A stretch of DNA of 64,000 nt from Marsupella aquatica (taxonomy: Eukaryota; Plantae; Marchantiophyta): NCBI GenBank assembly GCA_973895155.1, contig OZ316894.1, positions 24,054,709 through 24,118,708 on the forward strand. The letters are read 5' to 3'. The notes beneath the pieces were generated by a model that did not search any database, was not told where the DNA came from, and worked only from the letters and a program-made list of their open reading frames with translations. Below, one piece after another: positions 13,998 through 63,710 of the stretch. Positions within the stretch are counted from its first letter, which is position 1; each line of letters begins with the position of its first letter. A program made the translations under genes and the position numbers.

Positions 13998-14296
13998 TGT
14001 TGTCAAACACTTGTCAAGGAGCTTAAGCAAATTTTCTCCCCAAAAGACTACCTAATACCTGCTCCATATCATACGAGGTCACAAAAGATTGACAAAACTT
14101 CTGAAATGTGCCTACAATGTCTAATCACTCCATACATAAGTAGTTTCAACTCTCCACTTCTAGAGAGGTAGTCTCCTCGACTACTTTTGTACTCACACCC
14201 TTCCCCTCTCCTCTACTCCAAGGATTAGCAAGGGCTGGGGATCTCCGCTCCAAGCTGTCACCTTAGAGTAGATTCTCACACAAACACCCAAGAACC

Positions 14297-14595
14297 CAAA
14301 GTGCTTTCCTCTTCAAGCTTAAGTCTCCTCAAGACCCTCAAAGTAGTGTTACCTCTCAACCTTGCCCCCGGCCTTGGTTTTGGTCCACACATCCCCTTTA
14401 GCTCTAAAGAAGGCTCCTCTATCTAAGGACTCTTCCTCTTGTACTTACTTTTTGTTGTAATTTACAGTCACACACCAAGAAAAGTACTTTCCACCCTCAA
14501 GCTATAATCCTCTCTAAGTCTCAAAGTAGTGCTCTACCTTAACCTTGCCTCCTTGGCCTTGGTTTTGTACTAGCACATCCCCTTTGAGCTTAGAC
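14297..14595. repeat. Imperfect ~180-bp-period direct duplication near the left end of the large insertion
   Basis: aaagt.ctttcc...tcaagct...tcaaagtagtg...aaccttgcc...ggccttggttttg...cacatccccttt at ~14297 and ~14481. Confidence 0.7.
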
Positions 14596-15359
14596 CAAGA
14601 TTACACCATAGCATGGACTCTTCTCTTGCTCCCATACACTTCAAATGGGTATGATAGCCATGACAGAAAACAAAAAACAAAAAACCTGTTACCAGGGGTT
14701 TATTTTCTGTTAACAGGGAAATTGTACCTGTTACTAGTAAGCTTGTCCCTGTTACCAGTTTTGCCTGAACCATAACGTGCATATCCACCACTCTAAGGTG
14801 CATATCCACCACTCTAATGGCATAATTTTTCGGGGGGCAATAAAGTTTAAAACAAACAATTATTTTGTGCCATCCGATGGATGAAGTGTACTATCAATCC
14901 TCCATTGACACAACAATTTATTATAGAAGATAAAAAACATGGTATTAGGAGTGTGCCTAAAGAAACATTCATGCAAATCAATCTATTTTCATCGCCAAAT
15001 AGTGACCCTTAGAGTGGGACCCACCATAGCACATGTCAATCGTGGAGTCCAAATCAACCCAATCTAAAGGAGTTGATTAAATGGACCTTGTAACGTCACA
15101 AACAAATGACAAATCACATCCTCGAGGCTTTGAAGACAGTAGACAATTTAATCAACTTACACATTTTAAATAAAACAAGAGGTCATTCTTCCACAATGCA
15201 CGTACATAATGAAGCAATGAATATCCAGTTTCCTAGAACCAGCGCCCGACGCTAACCAACAAAGTCTCAATAAAACAACTAAAATATCCGTTGGAAAAAG
15301 ACAAAATAGGGAATAACCGTTATATTGAACGACGACCTATTGGGCAGTTTCGATCTCTC

Positions 15360-18300
15360 TCATAAGCCATTCAAGTTCTGCATCTCCAGCACAAGCTTGA
15401 CTTCACCTAAAGTCAAAATAGGTTGGCTACAAAGAGTCGACTCCTCAATCTCAAGTTTGAAAACATTTATGTACACCCAGTATAGATGTTTGCAAGGCAT
15501 GTACGACTTGCCACGCGAATGTCGGAGGAAGAAGTCTTCACAAGAGCAAGCGGGGAAGATACAGATTTGGACGAAGTATGTGCTTGGTGATCGATGGTTC
15601 TCATGGGTTCGAATTCGAAATTGCTTTCCAAAAGCATTTCCGGTCTGAACATTCCATTCCCCATCCAAACTCATCACTTCTTGTCGTGCAGACTCCATTC
15701 GCTTCGTGTGACCCATAGTGAGATTAGACCGAGGCCTTGAGTTCCTCCCATTCCGACTACCAAGTCGGAGATTCAGCTCCAAAAACCTTATTGTTTCTGG
15801 GAACACGTTAACATTTATCCTGAGGTCAAAAGCAGATGGCACAGATTGACTCAATCCTGTTGTTCGCGCTAAGACAAGTCCTTGCTCTTCCAGGAATGTA
15901 ATTTCAGAAGGAGACAGGCTCGTACCCTTCAGAACAGGCAAAATGTCAGGAAAAGGAGGAAGCTTCTGAACACCACGACGCGGATGACTCTTGTAACACG
16001 CTTGGTTCGGGCAAAACCAAATCATTTCGGAGATGGGTTCGCCCCTGAAGAGACGATGGCCCTTCACGACAATTCTGACAACACCTTCAGACGAATGGAA
16101 GCCAACCTTCTTGATACGATTTTGACACTCATCGCGATCCGAACTCCCATTTAGTGTACCATTGCATTGCGGACCTGCTCCATACTTTGATGTCCGTCGC
16201 AACTGCCACTGCCCCGGAGGGACATCCTTCTCTAGCACAATCGTGCGTGGAAGTTGATTCTGAAGTGCTGCTGGGGCACTGAGTGGAGGTTTTGAGGATC
16301 TTGTTGTTTGGGTTGTTTGAGGAGTATAGTCCAGTGAATCAGTATCACTCTCTGATGTGACCATACCTGAGAGATTCACTGCCTTTGTGACAGGATGATC
16401 AGAACTTGAGGGAATAGAAGAAAAGTCAGTTCTGTTCAGGTTCTTCCTTTTCAAACCACGAGTATTTGGTGTGGTTATTAGAACGGTGTCATGCCGATGG
16501 GAATCTTGTGGAGAGACAGTCCCAGTTGCATGTCCCTTCCTCTTCATTGACTTCGTCATTATATCTCCATTCAGGGGAGTACTTCTTTCCAAATCGAATT
16601 CTGCTGCGTTAGATAGAAGCATATTAGTCGCTTCTTCAAACAATCTTGGCGAACCTGCTTGATTGGCAGAACGGAACGCTAATTCCCATATAGTTGGCCC
16701 CTTCCCCCGGTTCAAGCCTTTACGGTATGCACTGTATCCGGCAACTTGAGACAGAGCACGGTTTTGGTCAACTTTGCAAGCTTCATAAAGACCGACCTTT
16801 TTCTTTGTAGCCGAGGCTTTCATGGACGCATGCCTTGATTCTGACCCTGTACAGTTGGGGATCAAGGCACCTTCCTCAGCGCTTTTGCTCTGCCATACGA
16901 AAATGTCAACCGTAAGTAGTATTCTATTACCAGCGCCCGGCGCTGGCAACATAAATATGTAGAACAGGCCTGAAATACAATTTCAATGTTTAATACTGAA
17001 TTCTAACTACATATTGGCTTCAATTTCTTGTACTACTTGTTTTGACGTGTATGGAGAAAATAACCAGCGCCTGGCGCTAATATGAAGTTGATGAACATTA
17101 CAATCTAGATAGATGGATGCCTTACCACTCGAATAAAATTGCCCCACTGGCGCCAGCGAACAACCCACCAAGATATCCAGCTTTGCAGCATCTTCAGCTT
17201 TCCGGGGACACAGTTTCCTGATTGCCACCACACAACAATCTCTCGGGACACCCGGTATGCTGCCACAAATGATGGTGCATTTCTCAGTTTCTCCCAAAGT
17301 CTTCGATGCTCCGATTGACATTCTTCCAGTACTCCTTCCTTGGAATGATGATGAAAAGATTGATAAAAGTGAAATGCATCAGAGCGCTCCCTCTCCGGGT
17401 CCGGGTGTCCACCAAAAAAAACATTTTGCACTGCATTCCATCCAGCTTGTGCATTGTCGGCCATAAATCCTTGGATGACAACCTCCTGAAGTTCATTTTC
17501 TTTGCAAACCTCAATCATCACTCTCCATGCCTTTTTGAAGGACTCAGTGTCTTCACCTTTCAACTCGCATATGAAAATTGTACACAGTGCACGGAAATTG
17601 TGGTCGTAGACGTGTGCGCTGAAAGTAAACCAATCCGTGGTGACACGCTGCATCACATCAAAACTTACCCAGGGTCCTTCGAGTCTTCCACCCGGTTGCA
17701 TCTGCCTCAAAAGATCCACACCGGAACCGTGACCTTTCACGGTCATTTTAAAGATGTGAGGCCTATCGTTCTGACATCCCTGACCTGGAAGCAAATACCT
17801 TTGGAGAAACGACACATGAATCCTCCTCTGCATTTGCAAGAGAAAATCTAATTCACCCCGACCTTTTTGGTCTATCCTAACGCTCCGACAAAGAGATGCA
17901 AACTTCTGCGGAGTGGAAAGGACCATCAGAGACTTCCATATTTCAGTTTCTTTGATATCGACCATGTCGTCAACATGTTCGCAGAGAGATTTCACTAAGG
18001 ACCCTGTAGCAGAATTCAAGATCCCTGCCGGTTTTGACAGAGGATTGGCTTCATGTTTTTTTTTAATTAGATCCTCAGCTATCTTCTCCGCACTCCTACA
18101 GAAGGTTTTTCTACCTGGATGGTTGTGCTCACCTATATGAATTGCCAAGCGGGACATATGACTACATGTTTCCGCATCAAGTAATACTTGGGGGTACATG
18201 TAAAACAAACGAGCAGGGCAGTACTTCACACAAAAAGGAATCTGTTCGCAGTAATGACAAACAACACCTCCCTCTTCGATGAAAGATCCCACAGCATACT

Positions 18301-19111
18301 GACCACTGAGCTTTGGAGTACCCTACCATGCCTTAGCATTTGCCTTCTTCTTCCTTTGGAAATAGTCGCAAGACTTGTTCCTGCATTCAATGAATCCCGT
18401 ACAGGTAACCTTCCCAAACTGCCAAAGGTTTTTAGGATGAACAGTTGCAGTTGTTGGAAATATGCGTGTCCAAATGTAACAATCTTTGGCATGATCCATG
18501 TCCCTAAGCCTAGAGCCTTTAGAGAGCATCTTATCAATGGGTGGCAACTCAAACACGACGTTACCATTGTACTTAGTTGGCAGACAAGACACTTGTTCAT
18601 GCCTGAAATCACCCGCTGATATGAACCATGACAACTCACTATGACTAGTTGATTTGAGTAACGTATCCATCGCATTGCGCCGGTACACGACCTCCAACTG
18701 CTTAGAGCTTCCCGGAGTCTCAGCTTTCACGACAGCAGGGAGCGGGCTTTTCTTCTTCGATGGTGGACTTAGAGTACGATCTCCATCCTCACTTGAAGAA
18801 ATCTCAACCACATCACATGGAACCGACGGGAAACTGGACAGTCCTGCATGCTGTCTTAAACAAACCGAGTACAAGATCCCTGCGTAGAGATGCCAAAACC
18901 GTTCACCGTCATCGACATTGAACGTTGCAGCATCCTCGATATCATCAATGGATTCGAGCTCTCAAACAATGGCCTCAATGTCATTCATCTTCAAATCAAA
19001 TCTCCCGCAGAGATACCTCTCCCGGACCTGCTTGTACGTATCTTCCATGGGGACGGGGATAGTCACAATATCTTCAGAACCGAATCGAGAAAGAACGATA
19101 GACCGAGACAT
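15360..19111 (-). pseudogene. MULE/Mutator-like transposase with GCM/WRKY-like zinc-finger N-terminus and C-terminal SWIM finger
   Basis: ORFs 18962-19111, 18323-18874 and 17105-18292 are in one frame separated by single stops. Cys/His cluster (CTG..C.N..C; C..C...C...CPA...H.G.H.HP), core FDVMQRV...FMADNAQ...DAFH...SESRH, SWIM CSCEDF...PCKHL. Intron ~16890-17125. Confidence 0.75.
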
Positions 19112-19299
19112 GGTGAACAAAAACAAAAACTGAGGGCTATAGCGTTTGAAAGAAGAAAAGTTCATGGTATTGTTCAGCTTATATCTGTCAAACCTGGGAA
19201 TTTGACGTTAACCGATCCGTTTGTATACGACATAAAACATAGACGATGGAGGATCCGTTGGCACCATAAATGATTTTTGTCGTTTTTTCCCCGAGAAGT

Positions 19300-20075
19300 C
19301 CGGATGTCAGACACGAACATATTGCTAAAAAGATCACCAACCTTACTTAAACAGACCATAAGATATGACAAGGTATTGTCAAATTTTAGTAGCGCCTGGC
19401 GCTAACTAAAATACGCCACTAAAAATGTGTCTGAAATCTCGACATTCCAAACTAGCGCCCGGCGCTAGTATAGAATAAATTCCCTGAAAATGAACATTAT
19501 GACCACATACCAGGTGGTAATTGGGAATAAATGGTGCCTTCAAAGGATGGTTTTGATTGATTATGGATGATAAATAAACATTTATACTAGCGCCGGGCGC
19601 TAGTATTACATTTGAGAAATATTTCTCCGTAAACGATGTACTGAAGGATACTTTAATAAAATATGGGGGTGGAAAGGCCAAAATTTATGTCATAGCTCCT
19701 TCAAAAAAGACCTCTAAATTTCTTCCAGTTTATACTAGCGTCGGGCGCTATTATAAGCATACTCTAAATTGTTCACCTTGATGGTCATCATTAATGCTAG
19801 CGCCCGACGCTAGTATTGATATGATGTTAGGAAATGTCTTTAACGGTAACATTCAACGGTAACTTATGACTTCCGTGTGTGTTACGCATCTTCTACCGTT
19901 TGATTTTGGTAATTAAACCTTCCGTATACAGACGTTGGAAACTGCGAAACATCAGAGCTAATGGCTTTCCTCTAGGTTATGTCATCCTCCCGCTAGAATA
20001 TATTACACGTTCAGAGATGATTATAGTTCCATAATTTCATTGTACGATAGTTCGTACACTTCTAGAAGGAAGACG
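19300..20075. promoter_or_regulatory. Divergent intergenic/promoter region with 5 clustered AGCGC palindromes
   Basis: AT-rich spacer between the minus-strand MULE-like gene and the plus-strand ParB-like gene. Palindromes at 19391-19811. Confidence 0.55.
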
Positions 20076-23000
20076 ATGGAGGTATTCCCCTCTTCTTCCA
20101 GAGGGTATAGTGCGGTTCCTGACCAGGAGCGAGCTTATTCTGAATCTTTGCAGTCTTCGTTTACTGGTTCAGTCTATACACGTCGTGTAACTCGTTCCTC
20201 AAAGTTGTTGCCGCTCACTTCTGTCAGCGGTGTTTTGGGTCCAAATCCTTTGCAAAGAAAGATGGACAACGTAGACACAATTGCGATCTAGGATGTTGCG
20301 GATTGCGCGCTTGCTGAGATTGATCTCATTTCGAAACATGTCATGTCTTTTGGAAAGGATTCTCGTGGATTTGACAAGGAGCCGCCTCGAATCCCTCTAT
20401 GTCGATTGGTTCACATGGAGGTGGTTCGTACTCTGCAGAAAGACAGCTCTTCCATCGAGAAGCTGAAAGACTCTTTTCGTAGTATGGGTTACAACTCTTC
20501 GATAGGGATGCGTTTCTATGTGCAGCCAACGGATGAGAACGGAATTGTTCTGACCTGTACCCAGGACATTCGTGATTCATGGGATCCAATATGGCAATTG
20601 GAGAACGAGAAGTTTGAGGCTGAATGCGAGGCTGACCCAGATTTTCTCGTCTTGAAGGATAAGATGTTCTCTGTATTCGATGGAAATCACAGGTTGTACT
20701 CCTGGACGCTTGTAACAGAGGAGAACCCGGACAATCCAAAATATCATCCTCGTGTGCTCTGTACAATATTTAAAGGAGACAAGGGATCTCTCATTGAAAT
20801 TGAGGTAGCTATGCACACGTGAATCAGTAAGTTCTCATGATTTCCAGTTCTTTCCTTAAATCTTGCGAGTGTTGTATTTACTAGCGCTCGGCGCTGCTTA
20901 TACATGAATTGTTTTTCATTGACTCTTACTCTCAACGTTTGTTCGTGTAGGCTTGGCCAAGCAGTTGTAGAGCCTTCCTGGATCCTGGATGCGGACATAA
21001 TCAAACGAATTCTGGCGCATGACCTTGAGTATTACAATAAACTAATTGACCCGGGTAATTTCAAGAAGTTTGAAAGCATTCGGATGAAAACTCGGAAGGG
21101 GTCATAGTATACGAAGAAGATGCCACAAGAAGCACTTGTTTACATTCTTTGTGAGAATAAGATAAAGTTGTACTCGCATCAATTCAAACTCGACATGGAG
21201 GTAGCGGAGGCTCAAGGGAGTCCATGGTAGGCGGACGAGATTTCAAAACGGCATGCGGCCATGATGAAAGACGCAACCAAAGATTGGGCAGTGAAGTCTT
21301 CAAAAATTACGCCCTTATTAAGTCCTGAATTTGAAGATTTCCTTAGTACATGTGCAGAAATGTATGCTGTCACAGAGAGAAACAAGAGAGAGAAGAAGCC
21401 TGACACCGTTGTATGTACGATGGACCGCGCACGATTGTTCACCATTGTTTCTGCTCTAGACCCAAAGTTACGAAGCACTTTACTTGTGGCACATTGCAAT
21501 CCTGAGCTGCGGAGATAGTTTTTTCACCCAGCAAGTGTTAACGATGATTTAGTCAAACAGTGGTGCCACACTTGGATCACTTGGAATAGTGTGGAGGGAA
21601 TTGCTGCTGGCATGTTACATTCATGTCTACGTGAAGTTGAGCAAACCATGCCCGCGAATAGATTGGAAGAGTGGAATTGTAGTTTGTTTGATGATCTAGT
21701 TCAGTTTGTTACAAATGAATTCAAGAGATTTGGTGATTCCGTGAAGAATAAGTTCTTTCACACTATGTGGCCTTCAAAGTACCCTGACAAAGAAGATTAC
21801 ACCCAGAGAAACCAGAAGCGAGCGAAGAGGTTTGTGTATAGGTTCTACATGCACATGGAGGTAACCAAACCTGATTACTTCTGGGCATATCCTGCAGCTT
21901 TTATGAAGTGGATTTCAATAAGTGAAGATGATGCCTTGGCTGATTTGTACTCTATGTACCCCACGGAGGGCATATTTCCTCCGAGACCAATGACAGAATG
22001 GGAGAGAACTCACTGCCCCTGGTATCTAGATATAGATAGATGGGATTCTCTTTTTGATCAAAGGGAAAAAGATGCCTTCCATAAGCTTTCAAAGTCTCAG
22101 ATGCCAGCAAAACTTGTGTCCGACATGAAGCAAGGTCTACTTGACGATGTAGACAAGTCTGCCACAAACTTGCAAACTATCTGTGAAACAACTGTTGTGC
22201 ATGTGGACCGGAGTCGCAAACCTCGCGCGAAAGCCAAAGCGGAGCTAGCAGCACCGAGCGAGTCTACTAAATCTGGAAAGAAGAGTAAGTATTGCTATCC
22301 ATGATTTTGCCAGCGCCAGGCGCTGGCAAAAAATATTTTGTTGAGGGTATTCTCTTTCTTGGTTATTAGGCTTCGGTTGCGACTTAAGTGAATTGCATTT
22401 GGTTAGCGCTAGGCGCTAGCTTCTTTCAATACTTTAAAAGTACTTATTCTAACTACGACCTGGTTATATTTTAGGAGGGAGGAAGTCTAATACGGTGGGA
22501 ACGGGAGATACGAAAAAGGATGCTACACCTGAAGTTTCTGAGGCAAACACGGGAGCTCGATTAGACCCCATTACTCCAGTTGACAAAGGGAAGGTTATAG
22601 TTCCTATCGACGCCACGAGTACCAAGAAGAAACGAAAGAGAGCTGTCGAAGGTGGACAATCTTTAAGGGAGAGTTTTATAGCTTCTGGTTTCCAACGTGA
22701 AGTTGGAAACTTCAAAACAACTATGTCTCGCCATTGCATGGTTGAGACAAGCCTTTCTGAATTTTTTGACTCGATGTTCAACAAGGAGGAGAAGCCCGAG
22801 TGGGTTAGTGATGTGGAGAAATGGGGAAAAGACCTCGTTAAGTTGGGATTTAAAGAGAAGGGAGTTGTTCGGGGGGGAAAAGTAAGATCATTTGGAGTGG
22901 ATGCCGGCTTCATTTACCTACCGACCGGGTTCAAACCATCTATCATTGATAAGAAGGTTCCTAAATGGAACATTCCAGATCACTCAATGGCTAGATCTTT

Positions 23001-24159
23001 TTTCAAATCCATGGATCCATTTTTATCAGATGATGGGTTCCTTGTAATTCTACACAATGGGGAGTACGATCCCATGTCGCAAGTCATTGCTGCCTGTCAG
23101 GAGTCAAGGAAATTTCAGTGTATATGCTCGCATAATGTTGTGATGTCTGACCCGATGTATGCGGCAAAGACATACCGAGAGATGTTTACCCTCAGGCTCA
23201 ACATATTTGGCTGAATTAATGGGAAATGTAAAATTCCCAAAGACCCCAAATTTTGGCCACTGTCCATCAGTGAGGACCCTTCGGTTACCAATTTGATCGG
23301 ACTCTCTTCGCTCAAATCAGATCCATTCCCGCAAATGGAGTTTGCTGGAAATGCTCGTCTGTCTGTGGGTTTTATGCAATCTGTTATAGAGCTTGTCACA
23401 CGGCCTCGTGATATTTTTATGGATTGGACTGCTGGGGCTGGAGGCTCTTACATTGCTGACGACTTCTCTGGACGATTTGTACTCGGGATAGAACACCGGA
23501 AAGAATTTATTGAAACCGCTTCAAAGGTTTTCATGGATTTGTTGTCTCCCAAAGAGATTGCAGTGTTACCTCCACCTGTTCCTACTGCCGACAGAAAAAA
23601 AAAAGATAAGCTTTGATCGGTTCTCAATTTTGATTTTGATGATGAATCGAGTGAAGGTGGAGAGGAACAAGGTACAAGAAACTCCGAGGAGGAAAAGGGT
23701 GAGCGTCGTGCAGCTGTAGATGAAACCGATAGTGATGACTCTTCCGAGTAATGTTCATAAACTCGTAAGCTTCTTTCTCCATTCCCGTCAATTCATAACA
23801 TTTCTTTTGTTGTTTTGGGGAAAGGCACCTTACAAAATGGACTTTGTTATATCAGGTCAGAGTGGAATGCAAGGAGACAATTCAAACTGCGGAGGAAGAT
23901 CGCGAGACACAACGTAGAAATACCGGAAAAACCGTTTGTTCTTCCCTCCTATGCAGAGAAAGCCGCAAGGAAAGCAGAAAGTGCAAGGACACTTTGCTGG
24001 GAAAACAAAGGTCTTCGGTTACGAAGGGGTGTTGACCGAAAGTTCATTAAACATCCTTATGTTGATGACTTCTCCCGCAGCCAGTACGTAGATGATGAGG
24101 CTGTGTCCACGGACAGATCCCAGAGTACAGATTCTGGTTCCGACTCAGAATCTTGGTAG
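20076..24159 (+). pseudogene. Large spliced gene: ParB/Srx-like N-terminal domain + C-terminal beta-class amino-methyltransferase-like domain
   Basis: IEKLKDSFRSMGY...VFDGNHRLYSW (ParB-N signature GxHR) at 20343-20822. C-terminal FMQSVIELVTRPRDIFMDWTAGAGGS.IA..FSGRFVLGIE (SAM-binding motif I in beta order) at 23293-23616. Degenerate motif IV candidate FIYLPTG and FLSDDG.L in 22495-23214. Introns ~20827-20950 and ~22286-22474. Several premature stops. 3' end uncertain. Confidence 0.65.
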
Positions 24160-24419
24160 TTGAGGCTAAATCTTTTAGCAGCGCCCGGCGCTTGTAACAT
24201 CTGTATTATTTCCCTCTGCTGAGGGTCCTTTTAAATTGTTGATTTCTCTCTACTTGTTGATTACTTTTGACTTTTGTTCTTTACAAGCGCCTGGCGCTCG
24301 CCAAATGGAATCTCTAAATGGCCGTTTAGTCTTTGTTGTTTCCTGTCAACGGTCATCGTCATTGGATACCAACTGCCATTTGGATTGTGTTCTTTAGTCA
24401 GTCGTCGGAAAACCGTTGG

Positions 24420-24800
24420 GGACCATAGTTTCGGGACGATGATTCCATAGTTTAGGGACCGGGCGGAAGAGACGACTATAGTTTCAGTTTAGGTTTGTTC
24501 GGGATGACGAGAGTTGGGGACGTCGATAGTTGAGGACAATGATAGTTTCGAGAGGATGATAGAACGGGATGATAGAATGGGAGGGGAGACTTTGTTTCGA
24601 GATGACGATAGAACGTGACGATAGAACGGGATGATAGTTCATTTGGGAAGACTTTGTTTCAGGAAGACAATAGAACGGGACGTTAGAGTAGGGCGATAGA
24701 ACGGGACGATACCTGTTACCAAGGTGAAGATAGTTTCGGGAGGCAATAGAACGGGACGATGATAGTTTGATGGTCGTTTCGGAACGGTAGTGTACGCGAA
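24420..24800. repeat. Degenerate short tandem repeat (gatagaacgggac / gatagtttcggga)
   Basis: More than 10 imperfect copies of gatagaacggga and gatagtttcg units. Confidence 0.75.
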
Positions 24801-24973
24801 CCTTTATCTGGCGTCTTAGTCTTCGCGGACCTTTCTTTGACCTTTGTCGGCTATAGCACTCGCGGACGACGTTCTTACGGGAGGAGAGGTTACATATTAG
24901 ATCGGGATCTTTGAAACATGGCGAGTCAGTATGAGCCAATGGATTGGGAGGCAGCTTTTCGTCCTTCTCGTGT

Positions 24974-25400
24974 CACTACTACATATTGGCCCCTTTTGCA
25001 AAGCTTTTTTTTGACGTCGGGATGGTCTTGCGATGTCATCAACTTCAGATATTTTGTGATCAAACACGCATCACAATAAACCATGCTCACAGGTTCGTAA
25101 CATGGTGTTGCGAAGCTAAATACCTTGCAATTTGTTTGAGATCGGATTGAATTTGCAACTCTTTCAGATACTATTTGTCTCGCAAAGTATTTGTGGATCC
25201 GCGATCATCGCGACTGCATTTGGATCTCTTTTGTTTCATAATTTAGCGATAATAATGTACTCAAATATATATTGTGAACCTATTAGCTTCGCACAATATT
25301 GTGAAGCATAAATAGTCGCAAGTTACCGAATCCAGTTGATTCGCAAAGTTGAGAACACATTGGCATCACAATTACCGATGGTGTGTTATTCACAAAGTGT
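24974..25400 (+). mobile_element. CACTA-like terminus (CACTACTACA) with ttgcga/tcgcaa subterminal repeats
   Basis: CACTACTACAT at 24974 followed by many (t)tgcga/tcgca(a) motifs in both orientations. Partner end not confirmed. Confidence 0.5.
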
Positions 25401-25728
25401 TCAGAAGTTGCTTCTTGACAAGCTTGAAAATGCTTTGCAAAGAGAGTTGTTTGAAAATTTTGTAGAATGGAAATGTTTGAGAGAGTTTCTTTACAAGATG
25501 GAGAATGCATGTGTTTAGGTTACAGCTAGGGTTTTCAAAAAGGTGGCATGCATGAGGATAGCTTTGGAAACGGCTAAGGTTGCATATATAACAGTGAGAT
25601 GAAATTTCAAAGTCCAATTAAGTGTTTGTAAAACAAAAGAAGAAAAGTAATATGTTAATATAAATAAAACCATGATAGTTAGTTTAGGGTCAAATTCTGG
25701 GCCCACAACAAGTTTTACTACTAGTGCA

Positions 25729-28700: not shown

Positions 28701-28999
28701 TACGTTGAGGCCTTGGATCATGTGCAACATTTGGTGGAGGGTCTCCTTCATTGGGTGGGACACCTCCTTCACCACCAATGTCTACACCAAACCAATCTGT
28801 CATGAAGTCATCCATGGCTGACTCTTGGTCTTGCATGACCTCATAATCTGTCCGAGGTGCCCCTTCATCTGGACTGTCATTATCATTGTCACTTGATGAG
28901 GAATCTGCTGATGATGTTTCCCCGTCTTGTGGCAAGCCCATTTCTTGATATGTAGCTCTCAACCTCCTTGGCAACATATCTTGACTAGGCCGCACATTC
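25729..28999 (-). pseudogene. EnSpm/CACTA Tnp2-type transposase (Transposase_21 + DUF4218 + DUF4216-like)
   Basis: IHACVNDCILY, CPICQEPRY, WFPIIPRL, RHVRLGLASDG, YNLPPW, HDYPG, LDPMHIEGN, KTHDYH, PPSFFD..VHLLVHL, WMY.LERYM.VLK.YVRNRARVEGS, YGKIEEI, FKCKWF. Intron ~27677-27808 and an apparent frameshift just after it. Confidence 0.93.
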
Positions 29000-29148
29000 T
29001 ATAGAAAATACAATAAAGTATTCACAATGAAATTAACGCCAAATATAGTAGTGCTCGAAACATATTATTAACAATATAAAAAGAACATATCATTACAAAA
29101 CATACGTTCACATACGATGAACGTATAATACATGTCCCTAAAGTAATC

Positions 29149-48700: not shown

Positions 48701-49654
48701 GGCAAGTGGCGCGGATTGTAATTCCTTGTATTTTTCCCGGAGCCTTAAACTAGCCAGATAAAAATGAAGGTGAGGATCCACCACCCGATCTACTTGTACC
48801 TCCCATGCAGCGCAAAGTTTTTCCAAACAACCTTCAACTCTGAGCAGCCCCGCGTTGGCCTTGAAATAGGACGATTTGTGTGAGGTCGTTCCTGACTCCA
48901 CATTAGAAAGACGGAAGTGAAGAACGATTGGGTCGTGATCCGAAAGTGCAGATCCACCTTCATGACAAAGTTCTACAACCGAATCTGTCCACCAGCTTTT
49001 TCCACTAAGGTAAAATCGGTCAAGTCTAGACTGCACCACCCTCCCATTAATCTTTCGTCGCCAGGTGAACTTTGCGCCACGAAAGCTCCGAGTAACACCA
49101 ATAGCATCCTCCAAGTCAAGTCTCATTTTTAAAAACCTCCAGAATTCTGCCTCTCTTCCTCTGATCAATGGCGATGAACCAGATGAATCAATTCTGCTTT
49201 CAGTCATATTGAAATCCCCACAGATAATCCAGTTGTCGTGAGGAAGAGATATTTTGAGTTCATGCCACAGTAGAGCACGGTCACGAGGGAGATTAGGTGC
49301 ATACACACTAACTAGACCGAAGTTTCCCAAAGGGTGAGAGACACACACCCACACAGCGCGGCCTCTGTCTACTACTCCAGACTGAGTGATAGAAAGAGAG
49401 GGGTGAATAAGTAACGAAGTACCCCCGCGGCCGTCATCAGGCTCCGCAGAGAAATATTGATAGGAAGGTAGAATTAACCGAAGTGCTAGCCCTAGTCTAA
49501 AACTATCTGCTTTAACCTCTTGTAAAGCTAAGGCAGTCAATGTGGTCTTGAGCGAAATGATCCAATTTTTCACCACGTGTTTCCTGTTTGCTTCGCACAG
49601 ACCACAGACATTCCATGAAGCTATATACAATTCATTATCCATTTTTGTTTTCAA
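45723..49654 (-). pseudogene. L1 ORF2 (AP endonuclease - RT - zf-RVT), frameshifted
   Basis: SWNVCGL, LQE, GDFN, SRLDRFY, SDHDP, KAPGPDG, WRPLTMLN, LDFEKAFDRV, GVRQGCPLSP, LFADD, YLG.P, C..C...ET..HLFF.C. Confidence 0.95.
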
Positions 49655-49761
49655 AATGATCTTCCAACTCTCATCTGAATCAGGAAACGAGAGAGACCAT
49701 CACAACAGAAAATGCAGATCAGCAGGTTCTGAGGAAAGCCCAACACAGCTTCTCGAAGCAC

Positions 49762-52095: not shown

Positions 52096-55000
52096 AGTTC
52101 AATGTTGCTTTAGAATAGGGAGCTCAAAGGGTCCAGGGGCCGTAACGAATGTCAGTGTCGGGACTACCAAGACCAGAGATTCCGCTACAGCATCATCCTA
52201 CCTCAAATGCTCAGAAGTTAGTCAAAATGCAAACTATCACTGCGCAAAAGGTGTCGAGAAGAAGCTCTGATGTTCCTGAATCCAATGAGACCGACGACGT
52301 GTTTACCAGGAATCTTAAACTCGTGTAAACCCGGAACGCAAATGTGAGATGCTCAAGCTCTCTCCGCTCCTCTCCGCTCCTTCAGCTCTAGACCATGAAC
52401 TTTGATAGTGTTATCTCATCTACCATATCTAGGGATTTTTATGGCTGCACATTTGAGGGTGTCTATTTGCTATAGTATTTCTAATAAAACTCTCCTGTAT
52501 GTTTACAGTATCAATTCTATTCAGCATTTCATGACTGGTGCACAAGGGAGCAGAATGGGGTGTCTGTAGGGATGCGATCATTCATATACTTCAAGCCATA
52601 TTATGTTCGCAAGATGAAGGACCGAAATGTTTGTTGCTGCAAACAACATGTGGAGATGGACTTACTAAAGAGGCAATTAACAAATTTAGGTGGCACCAGC
52701 ACAATAAGGACTGTCCTTGTGAATGTGATATCTGTAGACCCTTAGGTGTTGTACCCATTTCTTCTTGTATGGCATCTACAAAGTCCATAACCTCAGTTCG
52801 TGGCTGGATAGAGGAAGCTCTCTGTCCTAGATTGCCTAAGAACGAGTGGCACCAAAAAGCCTGTATTATAGGTGAATGTGACAAATGTGGAGTAGAGAAG
52901 TTGGATTGGTGCACTCAGGAGTTGGACCCTGCACAGAACAAATGATCGATTGGCAGTCGTTTGAATATCATGACCTGGATGACACTGCCCAACAAAAGAG
53001 AGAGAAAAAGAAAGGGTCTGAAGAGAGCGCAACAAAGAAGGCTAGGCAATTGAGGATGGTTTATAAGAAAACTCCCATGGTAGATTTTAAGAGGGCGGTG
53101 TTGGATACCATGAAAACATTTATTGTGCATAACTTTCGAGCACATTGGCAGTCGCAACAATTTAGACAATGTCTCAAAACATTTCCAAGAGGGACAATTG
53201 TTTCTTCAATAGATTTTTCAGAAAATTACACTTTTTTGCCTCAAAATGAGATTCAGAGTCAACATTGGGACAATAAGCAAGGGACATTGTTAATCCATGT
53301 TACCTATAGACATAGGGAAGATGTCGATTCACTTGAAGCTGTAGTGGGTAGGCCTGTGCAAGCAGCACAAAATGCTGATAGGACTCATGATATTATAGCC
53401 GATTACCATTTCTACATTAGTGACGATAACTGTCATGACACTCTTTTTGTGCAACATTGCATGGATGCACATTGGGAGTGGATGGCTGATCAGGGCATTC
53501 ATGTTGATCAACATTGGGTTTGGTCTGATGGGGCTGCCTCTCAGTTCAAGGCCTACAGACCATTTTATTACGTCAGTAGGTACTACTCGAGGTTTGGTGC
53601 ACGGATGAAATGGTTCTTCCATGCCTCTGGCCATGGGAAGGGTGTTGCTGTGAGTATATTTTGAACACACTTTGCAACCAATTCTGTGAATACTCACCTT
53701 TCAACTAAAGTGTAGTAAGTTTCTAATGGAGTTGGATGTCCAGACTTGCACACCTAAGAGACTTCTAATTTGTGTTTCTGGTATGTTGTAATAGGATGCT
53801 CTCGGAGGTCACATCAAGACCGGGCTTGCAACTGAGCAACTGAAAGGCATCAATGGTCATCGTCTGGAGGGTGCATCAGATGTGGTGAAGTTTTGCAAAG
53901 ACAAGTTTGCCGTTGGTCAATTGCAAGAGTATGGTGATGTGCAACTCGTTCGACGTGTTTTTTGGGAAATTCCAGTTGGCACTGTAAACAGAAGGAAGAA
54001 GTGGGATTGTGATCCAATCAAGGGTTGTAGATCTTTGCACTGCTTTGATGGATTTAGTAAGAGTTTGTCAACATTGTTGCAAGTTTGAGAGCTCAATTGT
54101 TTTTGTGTAGCTTGTGTTGATGATGATCCAATGAATTGTGAGAACAAGGAATGGGTAGGCAAGTATCACCTAGAGATGGTCAAAGGGGTATTGCAGGCAG
54201 ATGTCAGACCTAATGTACAGAACATGGGAGAGGGTGAAGGACTGCTTGACAACATCTCTCTGCCAGAATGTGTCCAATTGGGAGATTTCTATGCATGTCG
54301 TGCTTGTCAACCGAATCAAGATAATGTAGATTTCTACATTTATCAGTGCAAAGAGGTGCTCCACACAGTCACAAAGAGTTTTGCTGATGGGTACCAGGTA
54401 CAATTCAAGGCAGGGGACATGGCCTTAAAGGGGAGGTGGTTCCAACCATATCCAGGATCAGAAAACAAGTTTGTCTTGATTCAATTCTGCTTCTCCTTTC
54501 AGCTACTGCCACCCAGGGGAAGTCATTCACATTCGATTTGGTTTGACACCATGTGATGTGCCCAAGGGAGGCAAGGGACGAGGTGCTAGATTTTACACAC
54601 TAGACTTAGACACTATAGAAGCCATTTATGACTCGTTGCAGGTGTAGGTTCTGTAAGACTCGCTGCAGGTGTAGGTTCTGTAGGTTCTGGATGTGTGTGA
54701 TGAGGATATCCAAAGTTTCAATCTCGTAGGTGAGTCTAGTTTTGTCTTACATGAAGATTTCCAAGAATTCTGTCTCGTAGGCGAGGCTGGTTTTTATGGA
54801 ACTGTAAAATTGTTCAGAGATTTAATGTAAGGCGCGCATTGACTTATTTTTCACCTTCATTTCATTTTAGCATCAACAATGGTTGGTCACAACCCGTCAG
54901 GCAGAACCAGTAACATTGTGTAAGTACTGCTGTAATGGTAGTGTCCCTCAAAAGTGTCGGAATGACTAAGTGTCATTATACTTTTTTGACAAAACATACA

Positions 55001-57601
55001 AATCTATCATCTTTGACTATTTTTCACTTCTAATCATAAACTCCAAAAGTGGTGAATCTTAAGCTGTGGCTTCTACTATCTACAATCTCTATGCTAACAA
55101 TTTTTAAGACTTTTTCTGAGTAGCCAAGTGCCTCAATAAAATTGCAGAAAAGTGCTTACGTAGCACAGACCCTAAATCCATCCATATCCATGAACAGATT
55201 CCTTGTCGCCTTTAAATACTTGATGTCTTCAGGTTCTTTCCATGGTTTCCCATTCTACTCGTCCGACCCTGAAGGGGCTTTACTAGGACAATATTGAATA
55301 TCTATCCCTGTGGGAGTTTTATTGGTTTTGAGGCACTTTGTCTCTCAATTGAGAGAGTTAAATTATCATTTTCGCATGTACTCAATATTACATATTCTAT
55401 ATTTCACCGGCGGGGCAATAATTTTGATCACGTTGGGGACACCCGCATGGTTCTGTTGCTCGCCATGACTATTTAAGAACAATAGAAAAAAAATCACATA
55501 AACCATAATAATGCACTTTGCCAGTAATTCAAAGTAAAGCGGGTCTGGAGAAGTGTCCCATGTTGAAGCCAGACATTATCCCGCAAGGAATTTGCAGCAC
55601 CCACACGTAGACAGGATCCTAGTGGAAACAAAAGACGAAATGTATGGAGCTTTCGTGACCAAACCACTCAATTAAAATAGACATGAATGTGGGCATGAAT
55701 AACATGTGCGGTTTTCTTCAAACTCTGTAAATTGTAACCAGGCACCAAATTCTGAGATGAATACATAGTTGGTAAGAAAAAGTCTTACAATGAAAATGAG
55801 GCTCCCAAGGCCTCAATCCCTAACAAAGTATCATCCAAAACCAGATGATTTAACCTAGCCATCCGAAACCCTTCCTCTTGTATAGTGCGAGCCACCGGTA
55901 ACGGCAATGCTGATAGGTGTGAGATGGTTGGTGGCAATGCAGTGAGCTCTGGGATCAGATTTGGCCGTAACTCAGACTGCACCAACACAAAGGGCTCCCC
56001 TACTCCTAGCACGTGATCTACGTCTGGCTCTTCGTCGGGACGTATGGCGCGCCTCATTGTGTTGAGACCCTTCGTGCGGCACACCAACTTGTTCTTCTAG
56101 CTCCCGTGGCAACCTCCTCTCTTCTGCAAGCCGTAATTGTTCTTCGGCAGCAACCTCAGAGGGCACTCGGTCTAGCTCAGGCGTACGTGAGTGTTGGGGG
56201 CTTGCTCTTCCTCCCCTTCTTCCTCTTGGCATCCCATTGAGACCTGCATGCCAAGTTCACGAAAAACAATATCACCAACAAATCTTCCTCAAACATCAAC
56301 CGTTGCATGTTGCGTTGTGGTTGACGTAAAATTACAGAGTAACCAAGAAAAAAAAACTTCTCACGTATCAACCGTTGCAAGCTGCGTTGTGGTTGATATG
56401 CTTGAACTCCAAATAGACGTAGCTCCCCTCCTCCTGCAACCAAACAAGGAGAAGGATCCCCGGCAGCGGCGCCAAAAACAAGGACCACACTTATGTCACC
56501 TGCTTATCAAACGATTTACACGACAAATACGTATTTACTCCTACTAAAATTGTTTGTTATCGTATGACGAGAACGTGGAGGGACGCTATTTGGATTCTAT
56601 TGCACGTAGGATGAGTATGTTTATTTCCGCTCCCGGAAATGTAATTTTTGATCAAGTCTACCGACTAGCCGCTCTGCTTTTGATCAAGTCCTATGGACTA
56701 CATCACACACACACACACTCCTACTGGTCGTTGGTGGAGTGTTGTCACCACCCCTCCTACTCACATGGTTGACCAAACCGTGCAAGGATTCCTTAGACAC
56801 TTCTTGGGGAAAGAACACAATCGTGAACCAGAAAAGATAACGCCACACCAAAACTTGAGGAATCAAACCAAATCCATATCTTTTGGCAAAATGTCGTAAC
56901 ACATTGCAAGGACAACCCAGCCTCCTGCCGTCTGCCCAACTACTGCCTCACTGGGGCAAGTGCTACACCTCTACCTCACTACTCTGGCTTGATTCCCTCT
57001 TCTGGCTACGAGCTAACTTCCCTAAGCAAACACTAGACTGAGTTCCCCCCCTTACTACCCCGGGGATCTCCCCCTAAATACCAAAAAACACACCAAAGCA
57101 CCCTCACGGGGCCACAACGATGGTGGCTACCCTAGCGGCGCCGCTAAAATCCTTCACTAAGAAACCCCTAAACTAAAATCATGCAGCGCACACATGCTTC
57201 TAAAACCCTAAACCCTAAACTAACAATGGGACCGACGGTGCCTTCGATGGCGCCCCAACATTACTCCGTGAACCGTGAAATTGCAAGGAACCCCACAATG
57301 GCCAAAACTAGGTGCCCTTCCACTTGCACTTCTGAGTTCACCCCTGGATAGCCCTCCTCCTCCTGATCATGAATCACTCAACCGTTCTTGAAACGGACAT
57401 CGGACGACCAAGTTATGGTTGTTTCAGTATCCCATAAACCCAACTTCGTCGGGCCCTAACTTGCTCGTCCTGGCTCCGTTTGAGGAGCGCCACCTCTTGT
57501 TGGAATCAGCTCCGCGAGCTCTTTCCAACAAGCCCGTGAGTGACCCCTCACAAAAAATTTGGAAATTCAAGGGGCCGTACAATCACGTCCGTACGCCCAC
57601 T

Positions 57602-59379
57602 CTAATACTCCTCCTCTTCACTCACGGTGCCCTGGCTTGAGCCCCGTGAGTGGGCCTCCTCATCACTCTCCACTGGAGTGAGTGCCACTTCACCCCTCTT
57701 CTTCTTCACCGGGGTACTCCTTGTGCTAGTGCTCCCCTGCTTCCTCAAATTGGCCAAGGCTTGCCACGCCTTGATGTACCCCTCACCAATGGTGTCCTTC
57801 CACAAGGCCGCCTCTTCACCGGACCGCAACTCCAACGGTAAAACCTGCCCGATGGCCATGGGAGTGCCAGGGGTGACAGATCGGGGTGGCATCCCTAGGG
57901 TCCCCGTGTTGACCTGAGCCTCTCGTAACGATTTACGTACCTCCCTGAGCTTCTTCTCTAAGCTCTTGCTCTTCTCTTGACTCTTCTTGGCTGCATCCAA
58001 CAGGGGTCCATACTTCCCACTGACTTCCTTCACCACCATCTCAATGGCCCTGGAGATCAAATCCGGGGAAAGTAAGGAGCTAGGTGTGCAGGGGCTCTTC
58101 CGTTTCCCCAGACTCAAGGCCTCACTCCTCTTAGCCCTTGTCTCAAAGATCACCATTTGACTCCGTAGTGCTCCCACCTGGGCTCTTAACTCCACCACTT
58201 GTCCAGAATTATGCTTCTCTTTGGCCAATGCCTGTTTCAATACTCCAACCTCTTCCGCTTCCTTGGCCTTGGTGGACAAGGCTCCTTTCAAGTTGGAGAT
58301 CTCTACGTGAGCTACTTGGAGAAGCTTAACCTTCTCATGAATGGCCTCCTCCTTGGCCTTGATCACCTCCTTCATAGACAGGGCACTCTGCTCCAAAGTC
58401 TCTACTTGGTGGCCTGTTTGAGAGAATCTCTCAATGCATGGACTAGCTTGAGTCCCTCATGGACTCCCTCCCGGAAATCCAGTAACTCCGCCAGGTAGAC
58501 ATCAGGAATGTCGTAGACCAGGGGCTCCTCCGGATCTCCCACAAGTGATTCAAGCCACTCCAATGTGGAGTCCTCATCCTGGTTTTCTTCCTCTCTATTA
58601 TCATCCCCAACCGCCGACGATGATCCCTCCGTTAGTTTCCCCAAGATGGTAGTGGCAATACTCCTGATTTCCGTGGTAAGGGATGATCCAAAGTCTTCCT
58701 ATCCCAGGGAAACAATCCACCCTTCTGCTCTGGCCAGCAAAAATGACCCCATCAAAAGTATAGCCCCACCTGGTTTCACACTCCCGGGATCGGCGTCCAA
58801 TAGCTTCTTCAACCCGTAGTACCACCATCCGTACACATGGGCTGGATAGTTCTTGATGTCCATAGCTACCACAAAATGCTCTCCATTCACCACCCTGGAT
58901 TGCACGTTACCAAGGATCCGTTGATGAAGCTTGGCCAAAAATCCCTTGTGCTCAGCATCCTTGACGGCGGAAAGAGGAATGGAAGTAGTGGAGGTGGGAT
59001 TAATCACCCAACCGGCCACCATTGTCAACGTGAGCTCTCCCCTTATGTTCCGAGGTGTGAATGAGAATTGCTGGTTCTCCAGAAACAGAAGCTTAGCCAA
59101 CTCCACATGGGGCACTACCCGTTGGAGACATTCAAAGTAGATTCCTTCCGTATGTAACTCCATCCCGGCCTCAATGTTCCAACTCTTCCCTGAAGGGATG
59201 GTAATCTCCACCTTCATGAACTCCGTGAGCCCGGTGGCTTGAAAAATATTCCTACAATCCTCCATCACCTTGGCGGAGGTTTTGGGATAAATTCGACGAA
59301 AAACCTTCCTACTCACCGGTGCGGAACTTGCCGCCAGTCCAGTACTCATCATAGCTTCTCTCTCTTCTCTCTCTTGCAA
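57602..59379 (-). pseudogene. Frameshifted TE accessory-type ORF (globular N-terminus, acidic linker, coiled coil); function unknown
   Basis: Consecutive minus-strand ORFs 58699-59379, 58402-58644 and 57602-58396 with protein-like composition and a long heptad-rich region. No catalytic motif recognised. Confidence 0.5.
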
Positions 59380-59799
59380 TCAATGTCTCAACGTAGTCAC
59401 AATAAGCAGCCTTGTATCTCCGAATGCGTGCCGCACTAAACTCCGGTTGATCCAGCATCCATGCATCCAGAAATCAAATCCTCAATTACCAAATCCCGTC
59501 ACCCATAGCAATGTCAATTCCCTGGCCCAAAACGGCCCCCGTATCCCGATCAATCAATTACCCTCAATTTCCTCAGAAGCCACTCCGTGCTACTGCCGCT
59601 AATGCCCGAAAGAATCATGCCAACAAGCCTCAACAATTGACCATGAGAAAGAGCTTCCAGAATAATTGCAAAATGTGGAGCGAGCTTTTGGCAAGAGTTG
59701 AGAGAGAGCCCAAGTTTTTGCTTTTGGGAATGAGTTGGTCTTGCAAAAGAGAGGAAGTGAGAAAATAGGAAGGAAAAAAAGGAAACCCCATGGCTCCTT

Positions 59800-60600
59800 C
59801 TCGCCATGCGCCCCGGCTGCCCCGCGCCCCGGCTCGCCGCCCTACTCCCTCCTCTCACCAGCTCGCGGGAGCCACCCGGCAGCACGTGGCCCTATGCAGG
59901 GCTCGCACTGCGCCCTGTTACCTCCGAGGCTGGGGGATTTAATTCCCCCCCTTTGCTACACGCTGCCCTATGTAGCACCTCGCGTACCGGTAGCACCCTG
60001 CGCCCTCCTCCTGGCTCACAGAACGGTTTAATACCCCCACCACCTTTACTCGCCCCTCTTTTTTTGGGGGGGGCCCGGCTCCCGGTACGCCTCCCATAGC
60101 GCTCCCCCTGGTATGGGGAATTAAATTCCCTCCTCCCCCCAACTCCACTCACGGGAGAGTTAATACTCCCCCCTGACCTCTTCCTCCTTTCTTCGGCTGT
60201 GGCCCGGCTGCGCCTCGGCTTGCCCCGGCTCGCCCCGGCTGCCCTGGTACCCTCCTGGGAGGGTATAATGTGACTCCCCCCGAATGCGTCCCTTTTGGGG
60301 AATTTAAACCCCCCGTGCCTGGGCGCCTCCCAGGTGCTCCGCGCCCCGGCTGCCCTGCTTACTCGCGGAGCTCCCTCCTTAGCCCCCAAGATTCCACGTG
60401 TCAAGCCCCATGGGTGCCCCTTATGGTCTCCTTGGCAGCGCGTTTCCCTATGCAAGCCCTCGCGGTAGCACCATGGCCTTTTAACAAAAAAAACAAAACA
60501 CCCCCTTATATACCCTTTTTCCCTAACACTTAAAGTTCCACTCCCTACTCCTTGCTATTGGGGTCCTCGGAAATGGTCATAAAATAATGGGGAATTCCCC
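59800..60600. repeat. GC/CpG-rich island with gcgccccggctgccc repeats and GGGG-(AT core)-CCCC hairpin-like palindromes
   Basis: gccccggct at ~59809, 59826, 60221, 60232, 60343. gggggatttaattcccccc (59932), ggggaattaaattccc (60115), gggagagttaatactccc (60153), ggggaatttaaacccc (60297), ggggaattcccc (60589). Confidence 0.75.
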
Positions 60601-61260
60601 CAAAGTAGGGTCTTCTGTCAAATTCTATTTCTAAGGACCCAACGTATAAAATACTCCGGTCCCTCATAAGTGACGGAAGTAACTTCCAAAAATTTTTAAA
60701 AAAAACGGCGCATTTACAATGGTTATTTACATGGCACCACCCCAGTTCACAATCATCGAGGATTTCCAGTGACGGGAACCTCGTCACAATAACCATCCAC
60801 GACTTGGGATAGCTGCAAAACCTCCTCAATTGGGAGGCCCACACAGAGACTCAACTTATACCCATTCCTGTCTTTCTCTCCAAACACTTCGGCCAATTGC
60901 TCCTTGGAAATGTCTTTGATCTTATGAGGATTAACACCTTCATTTGGAAGACCAAATGTGACATGGAAATACTCTGCGTCCTTCACATAATCTTTAGGAT
61001 CCCATGGCTCTAGAGGCGGCTCCACCTTAGTCTTTGGTTTTGCAGTTTTGATACTCTCTACAAGAGCTGGAGAGTCGGGAGAAGCACGATCTGTAGCTTG
61101 GGAGGCATACGTGCCAGTTGGTTTGCTAGTGGACCGGACTCTGCTGAGACGAGGGAGAACAGGGTCTGGGACTATAACTATCTCCATTTCTCCTACAGTA
61201 GCTCAAGAGTAGAAGTTCTAGGAACTTCTGGATTATCAGTTGAGGCATCCATGACGGCAT
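60545..61260 (-). pseudogene. Degraded TE accessory ORF of unknown function
   Basis: ORFs 60753-61187 and 60545-60844 overlap by a frameshift (…FGLPNEG…LAEVFGEKDRNGYKLS…). Assignment is tentative. Confidence 0.35.
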
Positions 61261-62599
61261 TCAAAAATACGCTAGTACAGAGGAAAGTTGTGGTGAAAAC
61301 TCAAAGTATAAGCAAGCGTATTGGGCCAACACCTACATTATTACCTCAGGACTACTGCGGATTGAAAATGGATGTTGGTTGGATTCAATCACCAATGACT
61401 CGGGTAAAATTTCCTCCACTGGCTTCAAACAAACCGCCCGCTCGGCCTACATGCATTACACAATGGAATTAGAAGGTTGCATTACTCCAACCAATGCAGC
61501 TGACGGATAATCCCGTGTTAATAGCACGCAAACAGATAGGGGTACATACGACGGTCTATCAAAAAGTCAGCTAAGGAATCGAAAGAATGCTAGCCATCAT
61601 TTTTGAGAGTTTGATCATCATGTGCAAACCAAACCTATGTCAGCGACCCGTCGAAGTGCTCAGATGTGAAAAAAACAAAGAAATCGCTTCTGGAAGTAAG
61701 TTGGCCGTCCTCCACTAGCTTCCCTTTGTTGCCAATAAACTCTACTGCGACGAGAGCTCTCAGGCTGTAATTATCTCAATGGTTTGAATGGGCCGGGCCG
61801 ACATGGACAATCTTGCAATGCGCAAAAAAATACCTACTTGTTTGCAATTCTCGTCGCTCTCTCTTCCTGCCCCAACACTCGAACACTATTGATTTTGGCT
61901 ATTGACCTCAAGCTGCTTGGTGTCCACCATGAAACACTTTGTAAAATTTGATAGCTCAGGCATAAAACTCTCAATAATACTCCTTTGTGCTCGAGTCCTT
62001 ACTACTGTTGAGACTATCGCGCCAAAGTTGGAAGGACTTGATGTCCTTGTTTTCAAAATGTCCTGGCCGGCGGGGATTGCGAGGACATTTATTGTAGGTT
62101 TCCAAGACTTCCGAGTCTTTTTTTTGAAAAGTAAACGACGGCTACTCGCCTCGAGGACATTAAACACATCATAAGTACTCTATATGAGGATACGAGTGCA
62201 AGCTTTACTAGGGTCCTACTAAATCCAAAAAAGTTCATTTAATGGAATCAGTTCACCAGTTCAAATCTAGCCTTTGATATACGTATCCTCAATCTTGGCC
62301 ATTGAGGGATATATTACACATTTAATGCAAAATGGCAAGGACTCGAGTCCTTTTTGTGGAGAAAAAAGGAGAAAAATGGTAGTCCTCAATCATGCAATCC
62401 ACCACAAGTCTCCTTTTATTGTATCACCTTTACAACAAAAGTTCACTACACATTCTCCACACTAAGCATGGACCACCTCTCCCTTCTCAAGCTTAGCCCT
62501 ACCTTGGCAAGGTAGAGATTCCACTTAAGAGATGAGACTCCCGGTCCCTAACAAATGAAAACTTCCTCCTTATATACTATTCTCCTTCCACACCACACC

Positions 62600-62790
62600 A
62601 AGGTAGCCCACCAAGGACCAACTAAGGACCAAAGTAGAGGACCAAGGTAAAGGACCAAGGATCAAAGTAGCTCACCAAGGACCAAGGACCAAGTACCAAG
62701 GTAGCCCACCAAGGACCAAGGACCAAAGTAACCCACCAAGGACCAAAGACCAAAGTAGAGGACCAAGGACCAAGGTCCAATCACCAAAGT
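62600..62790. repeat. Degenerate 7-bp tandem repeat (accaagg / aaggacc)
   Basis: ccaaggaccaaggaccaaagtag-type units repeated over ~190 bp. Confidence 0.85.
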
Positions 62791-63710
62791 CCTCCTAACT
62801 ACCAAACTCACACTACAACAAAAGTCCAACTAACTACCACTCCCACTCAAGCTCCTTCACCTTGTGATTGCCTGGTCTATTCAACCATCTCCTAGCCACC
62901 CTTGTGCTTGACTTATTCCTGCCTTGTGGTAGCCTCGTCAAAGCGTTTTTACACTTAGTCGGATTTTGTTATTTTGGAAAAATTATAATTCCCCAGCCCA
63001 TATTGTACCCACTGCCAAAAATCACCCATAAGGCCAAAAGGACTTTTGAGTAGATCCATAGATTCTCTGGACATAGGGCTATGTCTTGATTTACTAAGAT
63101 CTAAACAAAACCCTATAACAAATTTTCTAAAATTAGGTAAAGAGGGTTAATTCTTATGTTTTCCAAAATTCTTCTCAACTTTGAGATGCTCCCAAAAAGT
63201 AACCAAAGGTAACCAAGTTCTCCCACAAGTTTCCAGGGATAGAGTGGACCATATTTAACCTACTTTGAAACTTGGAACCCCTACCTTTTCCCATCAGCTA
63301 TTTTTCCCAAGACCCGCTATTTGGTAACTTTAAGTTTTGCCAAAATACTTACAACTCCTAGGTTAAGACCCCACTTGACTTTGTGACTTTTATGTGTGGT
63401 CTAGGGACTACCTAGCACCTATAGGGTGAGTCTTAGCAAAACTTATCACTCAAAAGTATCGGTCATGCCTTCAGCCCGACTTGCCTACTACCATAACTTT
63501 TTTCCGCCCTTACCAAATAACTTACTCAACTCTTGATACTTCTTAGAGAAATATGTCCTCTCCCTCAATTTATTTCCCTACTCTACTTCCTTAGTTATTA
63601 AGTTACCCTAGACCTAACAACTCCGCTAATCACTAAAACTATGTAATTACTACTCCTTAAAAGCAAAAAACTGACGCATTTCCTACTCAAGCCTCCACTG
63701 AGCCATTCCA

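Follow-up and report, generated by a model that had tools for sequence, protein, structure and literature searches.

Target site duplications (TSDs) of 4 bp occur in 6.2% of plant LTR retrotransposons overall, and in 100% of Phygy, 96% of Selgy and 100% of TatI elements, which are or include Gypsy lineages of non-seed plants, according to the portion of Neumann et al. 2019 used here (PMC6317226; lineage values from supplement 5). As far as that portion describes them, a solo LTR of Phygy, Selgy or TatI resembles the element reported below in its TG...CA termini, 4-bp TSD, length of about 2 kb and lack of coding sequence, and further in a tandem array within U3 and a TATA box followed by a poly(A) signal. 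The TSD found here, CACC, differs from the NCGN preference given for Phygy, and no liverwort lineage is named in that portion. Maize-type nested transposon clusters, in the part of PMC10741241 relied on, show the same multi-layer nesting with a TSD for each layer; they differ from the present case, in which an LTR received the insertions and the large inserts are DNA transposons, not further LTR retrotransposons. Sola elements, which are reported from Physcomitrella, make 4-bp TSDs and have short TIRs (same part of PMC10741241). Ginger and GingerRoot share TG...CA ends with the present element, and Ginger1 makes 4-bp TSDs, but both carry an integrase ORF and TIRs, which measure 100-150 bp in GingerRoot (sections of PMC6839031 referred to), and the backbone unit described below has neither. 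Identity with Ginger or GingerRoot fails because TIRs are absent from the ends of the insert.

The window, a 64,000-nucleotide stretch of the genome of the liverwort Marsupella aquatica in whose coordinates all positions are given, holds a Helitron RepHel gene divided by an insert of 49,713 bp at 13998-63710. The first letters of the insert are TG (13998) and the last CA (63710), and CACC flanks it on both sides.

13994..13997, no strand: left copy of the TSD CACC (sequence inspection)
63711..63714, no strand: right copy of the TSD CACC (sequence inspection)
63715..64000, minus: upstream half of the Helitron RepHel gene, running off the window (Helraiser 7LCC residues 782-866, E 3e-5)
12250..13993, minus: downstream half of the RepHel gene with PIF1 helicase, broken by stops and frameshifts (7LCC residues 874-970)

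The downstream half matches Helraiser (PDB 7LCC) at E 2e-15, and its PIF1 domains lie at 12250-13608 (Pfam, E 4e-51). The residues VPPAA and GE, the latter encoded across one copy of the duplication, correspond exactly to Helraiser residues 867-873; the reading frame passes from one half to the other with no gap. Contigs of four public runs (X1-X4, from two studies and two coded organisms, of unrecorded library kind) were placed on two stretches of the window, 13800-31400 and 44001-64000. The runs share 0.42-0.47 of sampled words with the window and, because none has half of them, represent relatives or related strains and not the source. One X1 contig covers 13831-13997, ends its match exactly at the insert junction and carries a further 23 letters, as would be expected of an uninterrupted Helitron copy. 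It is highly improbable that recombination or misassembly brought the ends of separate elements or Helitron copies together into a chimera and that CACC matches by chance: no read spans the locus and a 4-mer matches by chance about once in 256 at a fixed register, but such a chimera is contradicted by the gap-free reading frame against Helraiser and by the adjacency of the backbone pieces in other copies.

The two ends of the insert are unrelated to each other beyond TG/CA. No self-BLAST match within the window links them, and the left 660 bp reach a best local score of 40 against tiles of 31-33.6 and 54.5-63.7 kb, where the shuffled maximum is 44. Neither Pfam, run on 46 selected ORFs, nor a six-frame motif scan revealed a gag/pol, recombinase or integrase; the sole real match of the motif scan is a LINE zinc knuckle, and the tRNA and Rfam scans were both empty. 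Giant elements mobilized by a tyrosine recombinase (Starship-, Crypton- or DIRS-like) were rejected as candidates, as Pfam on the same 46 ORFs gives no recombinase and backbone ORFs are at most 39 aa. The original prediction thus described the boundaries correctly in that the RepHel halves rejoin exactly with CACC duplicated, the TG...CA ends are neither inverted nor direct repeats, and gag/pol and recombinase are absent. Its statement that there is no TIR or LTR pair holds for the ends of the insert and fails internally, where most of the supposed backbone lies between TIRs at 31067 and 62403.

The 49.7-kb insertion is best read, with a probability of roughly 0.88, as a 2,004-bp likely solo LTR of Gypsy type that is interrupted by two nested DNA transposons (16.4 and 31.3 kb) holding further elements. 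The LTR lies on the minus strand in three pieces:

62408..63710, minus: likely solo LTR, 5' piece, 1303 bp (U3 features; contig loose end joining 31019-31048)
31016..31066, minus: likely solo LTR, middle piece, 51 bp, including one copy of the TSD ACAA (contig joints with both neighbours)
13998..14647, minus: likely solo LTR, 3' piece, 650 bp, including one copy of CTTCAAATG (joint 14638->31007)

The pieces add up to 650+51+1303 = 2,004 bp, and all parts of the insert sum to 49,713 bp. The junction between the 3' and middle pieces is carried by the joint 14638->31007, which is present in all four runs and is the deepest joint listed in each (15 of 73 joints listed), with an overlap of nine letters that suit both sides; three of the four also have a variant, 14643->31019. 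The junction between the middle and 5' pieces rests on one contig, from X2, which enters the window at 62406 and whose preceding 31-letter loose end corresponds to 31019-31048 at 30/30, and this contig shows the empty site of the 31067-62403 element. Another loose end, at 31048, matches 62406 weakly, at 18/30, a value equalled or beaten at 15 other positions of 127,940. A contiguous LTR-sized unit of 2,004 bp in other copies is therefore seen, among the rows listed, for the first junction in 4/4 runs and for the second in 1/4.

As the two ends meet in such a unit, the adjacency that the original prediction associated with an ordinary LTR is found, although the parent family of the LTR was not retrieved. 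The earlier proposal of a very long solo or chimeric LTR with nested transposable elements was right about the solo LTR and wrong about the length, which is an ordinary 2.0 kb or so. The backbone that it had drawn, 13998-14658 plus parts of 31-33 and 55-63.7 kb, is mostly wrong, and only 13998-14647, 31016-31066 and 62408-63710 are retained. Its other proposal, an undescribed giant cargo element in which the whole 49.7 kb moved as a unit, is extremely improbable. A single 4-bp TSD does bound the entire stretch, but in other copies the backbone pieces meet without the 16-kb and 31-kb parts between them, and each layer has its own TSD (CACC; CTTCAAATG; ACAA; ACGCATTC; TTAT; 16 bp for the LINE). 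Against it stand also contig depths that differ more than tenfold between parts of the insert, and the lack of an integrase or recombinase in the 46 ORFs and six frames scanned. Summed X2 contig depth, which is not copy number, reaches 3,470 at the left end of the insert and 2,115 at its right end, compared to 123-412 over 44-55 kb; over 15-25 kb it is 374-1,491, consistent with a repeated unit. The insertion is thus ordinary transposon nesting and offers nothing in favour of a new giant mobile element.

Units of this sort, 2 kb long with TG...CA ends, usually originate as solo LTRs. The backbone unit has the TG...CA termini of LTR retrotransposons, and the 4-bp TSD (CACC) around the single unit is within the 4-6 bp expected for a solo LTR. 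An ACCAAGG-type tandem array occupies 62597-62840 in the U3 of the 5' piece, and it is followed on the minus strand by a TATA box, TATATAAG, at 62576 (unit position 1135) and by AATAAA at 62420 (unit position 1291), from which about 700 bp remain to the terminal CA; the TATA-like and AATAAA motifs anticipated near 62570 and 62415 on that strand are these two. A second AATAAA is located at unit position 137, upstream of the TATA box. The 3' piece is U5-like and contains an internal duplication of ~165 bp. The unit is non-coding, its longest Met-initiated ORF being at most 39 aa, and this together with the order of TATA box and poly(A) signal points to a putative U3-R-U5 anatomy. The two large pieces (A and C, the 3' and 5' pieces) have a minus-strand GC skew in common (+0.36 and +0.32), unlike the adjoining ends of the inserts, which range from -0.10 to +0.13.

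The same unit could be a repeat-less non-autonomous element that moves by itself with the help of an integrase or transposase acting in trans, a reading that is compatible with the high contig depth over both ends, with ends that have no TIRs and with a parent that was not retrieved in the metagenome and viral contig scans. It is nevertheless quite unlikely, as the U3-TATA-poly(A)-U5 order and the length are those of an LTR, and Ginger and GingerRoot require TIRs, going by the available sections of PMC6839031, where none are present here. Exact-pattern scans with both LTR ends gave no loci in metagenome contigs and one match in viral contigs, a chance 18-mer. Among the loose ends listed (24 of 1,680 for 13800-31400 and 24 of 2,535 for 44001-64000), none lies at 13998 or 63710 and none bears a primer binding site (PBS); a full-length parent with PBS, gag-pol or PPT beside the LTR was found neither in these loose ends nor in the metagenome and viral contig scans. 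A literature search for liverwort solo LTRs gave no directly relevant paper among the titles listed, which does not imply absence from print. For the solo LTR, the parent is most likely a non-chromovirus Gypsy element of a leafy liverwort, and its lineage is likely Phygy-, Selgy- or TatI-like, judged from TSD length only.

In the history proposed for the solo LTR, the integrase of a Gypsy retrotransposon would have inserted that element into the RepHel gene, in minus orientation and with a 4-bp stagger. Its two LTRs would have recombined with loss of gag-pol, and a single LTR would have remained, flanked by the original TSDs. Cut-and-paste insertion would have brought the MULE-like and Sola-like elements into this LTR, either before or after that recombination. 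Further elements would then have nested inside these two inserts. The locus neatly documents the order of insertions at one site of a liverwort genome, with a solo LTR as landing site and at least four nesting layers, and it supplies exact termini for several unannotated transposon families.

The first of the two large inserts is a MULE-like element, with a second transposon inside it:

14648..31006, no strand: nested MULE-like DNA transposon, 16,359 bp, with the 9-bp TSD CTTCAAATG (contig joints; Atlas PF10551 score 0.95)
15360-18961, minus: MULE-like transposase ORFs (Atlas PF10551 MULE clusters, 0.95)
24974..29053, minus: CACTA element inside the MULE, with CACTACTA termini and Tnp2 transposase (Pfam Tnp2 domains; termini)

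As the joint 14638->31007 excludes this stretch and CTTCAAATG stands on both sides of it (14639-14647 and 31007-31015), it is an insertion with a 9-bp TSD. This length is in the MULE range of 7-12 bp and is accompanied by a MULE transposase, the ORFs of which give no direct Pfam match among the 46 selected. The element ends in GG...CC with short imperfect subterminal inverted repeats, and a search of 14648-31006 for long TIRs found none beyond this match; non-TIR MULEs exist. It resembles Mutator-like elements and Pack-MULEs in its 9-bp TSD, MULE-like transposase and extra gene-like cargo, and differs from them in being large (12.3 kb without the CACTA element) and in having short imperfect TIRs instead of long ones. 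An X4 joint, 19752->30447, links the left and right arms of the element in a shorter derivative. No matching 3-bp TSD was found for the CACTA element. Dispersed palindromic repeats of the AGCGCCCGGCGCT type are scattered within the MULE-like element, at 15232-30558.

The second large insert is a TIR element that hosts three further insertions:

31067..62403, plus: nested TIR DNA transposon, likely Sola-like, 31,337 bp including nested inserts (TIR 25/27; TSD ACAA)
33171..33835, no strand: MITE, 665 bp, 14/14 TIR, 8-bp TSD ACGCATTC (TIR and TSD comparison)
34323..43749, minus: TIR element with DUF7869 transposase-like ORFs (39156-41736), 9,427 bp (Pfam; TIR; TSD TTAT)
45511..52440, minus: L1-like LINE with DUF4283, zf-CCHC, APE endonuclease and zf-RVT (Pfam; 16-bp TSD)

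The outer element is bounded by an inverted 27-bp pair at 31067-31093 and 62377-62403 (self-BLAST), 25 of 27 positions being identical, with ACAA outside both. The ORF at 52.9-53.6 kb has homologues in Calypogeia fissa (31 matches among 346 candidates), which are colinear by tblastn with 32788-33057, 33932-34342, 43756-44148 and 52503-54638; therefore one transposase gene spans the element from 32788 to 54638. This host gene is split by the MITE, the second TIR element and the LINE. The DUF7869 element, whose TIRs are identical at 27 of 35 positions, including the first 14, interrupts the coding part of this gene, and the LINE, which includes the copies of its TSD at 45511 and 52425, occupies an intron-like gap. 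The outer transposase matches no Pfam family, and its nearest named Atlas cluster is DUF7869 at 0.92. The combination of a 4-bp TSD with TIRs, as in Sola, makes the outer element a likely Sola-like transposon. Like Sola, both it and the inner element at 34323-43749 have a 4-bp TSD, short TIRs and acidic-triad-like transposase motifs seen by eye; Pfam gives the inner element as DUF7869 only.

Two other candidate elements in this region were rejected. One, at 34389-54846 with TTTTTC as TSD, conflicts with an X2 contig that spans 54527-55523 and with the boundaries set by transposase colinearity; the other, a GGGTC...GACCC element at 43.4-55.2 kb, has no TSD and conflicts with the same contig. 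The palindrome CGATAAATTTATCG recurs throughout 34.5-43.3 kb and may represent transposase-binding sites. A quasi-palindromic tandem array of ~1 kb (20/40-bp units, AAGGACT...AGTCCTT) fills 44400-45500 just before the LINE in the intron-like gap.

Toward the right end of the outer element, one stretch stands out by its depth:

55800..60700, minus, boundaries approximate: piece of another repeat, with very deep coverage (depth; PBS-like TGGCGCCGCTGCCGGGG at 56474; ORFs)

X2 depth is 1,208-4,738 over 56.0-60.0 kb, compared to 123-412 over 44-55 kb. The PBS-like TGGCGCCGCTGCCGGGG resembles the tRNA-Asp PBS of Athila. ORFs at 57602-59379 are homologous to a 596-aa Calypogeia fissa protein (P0011), and the repeat is likely a piece of an OTA-type Gypsy element from its extra-ORF region. 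With the ORF at 58.7-59.35 kb as query, a word-index search gave 0 of 435 candidates and a HMMER search gave 7 matches, one of which, the Streptococcus surface protein P0014 (E 6.5e-4), was dropped as chance. A TG...CA plus TSD scan for the ends of this repeat gave 37 pairs, none convincing.

Both large inserts carry ORFs that resemble cargo genes:

20292-24159, plus: ORFs of the MULE-like element that resemble cargo genes (weak N6_N4_Mtase; DGNHR motif, ParB-like by eye)
29149-29964, minus: SET-like ORF in the MULE-like element (SET, below the cut-off)
35739-38805, plus: two ORFs of the DUF7869 element, one F-box-like, the other split and bearing DIPY and DLCCGT, which by eye resemble methyltransferase motifs (F-box E 0.075)

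In the MULE-like element, the Pfam values for N6_N4_Mtase (E 0.0065) and SET (E 6.5e-4) are both sub-threshold, and the split ORF of the DUF7869 element gives no Pfam match. Adenine and cytosine methylases ride on transposons of non-seed plants, and a literature search for methyltransferase-carrying bryophyte transposons gave no directly relevant paper among the titles listed, which again does not imply absence from print. It is conceivable, but rather doubtful, that the MULE-like (12-16 kb) and DUF7869 (9.4-kb) elements are multi-copy families with chromatin-modifying cargo that would mark or shield them from host silencing, the cargo meant being the weakly supported N6/N4 DNA-methyltransferase-like, SET-like, ParB-like and F-box-like ORFs. 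The methyltransferase-like and SET-like genes could matter more if they prove intact and family-wide.

Outside the insert, an ORF at 6186-7064 (plus) has a CCHC-like motif and a restriction-endonuclease-like motif, a pair typical of the C-terminus of RLE-type non-LTR retrotransposons; Pfam and PDB gave no support for this ORF. An 18/19-bp tandem array (11766-11998) lies a short way downstream of PIF1. The 3' end of the Helitron may be near 11739, where a strong hairpin was sought and none was found. Approximately 1.2 kb from the array is an intact-looking, single-ORF gene for a fasciclin-like arabinogalactan protein (9685-10554, plus), which is closest to that of Calypogeia fissa (76% identical) and then to those of Marchantia and Riccia.
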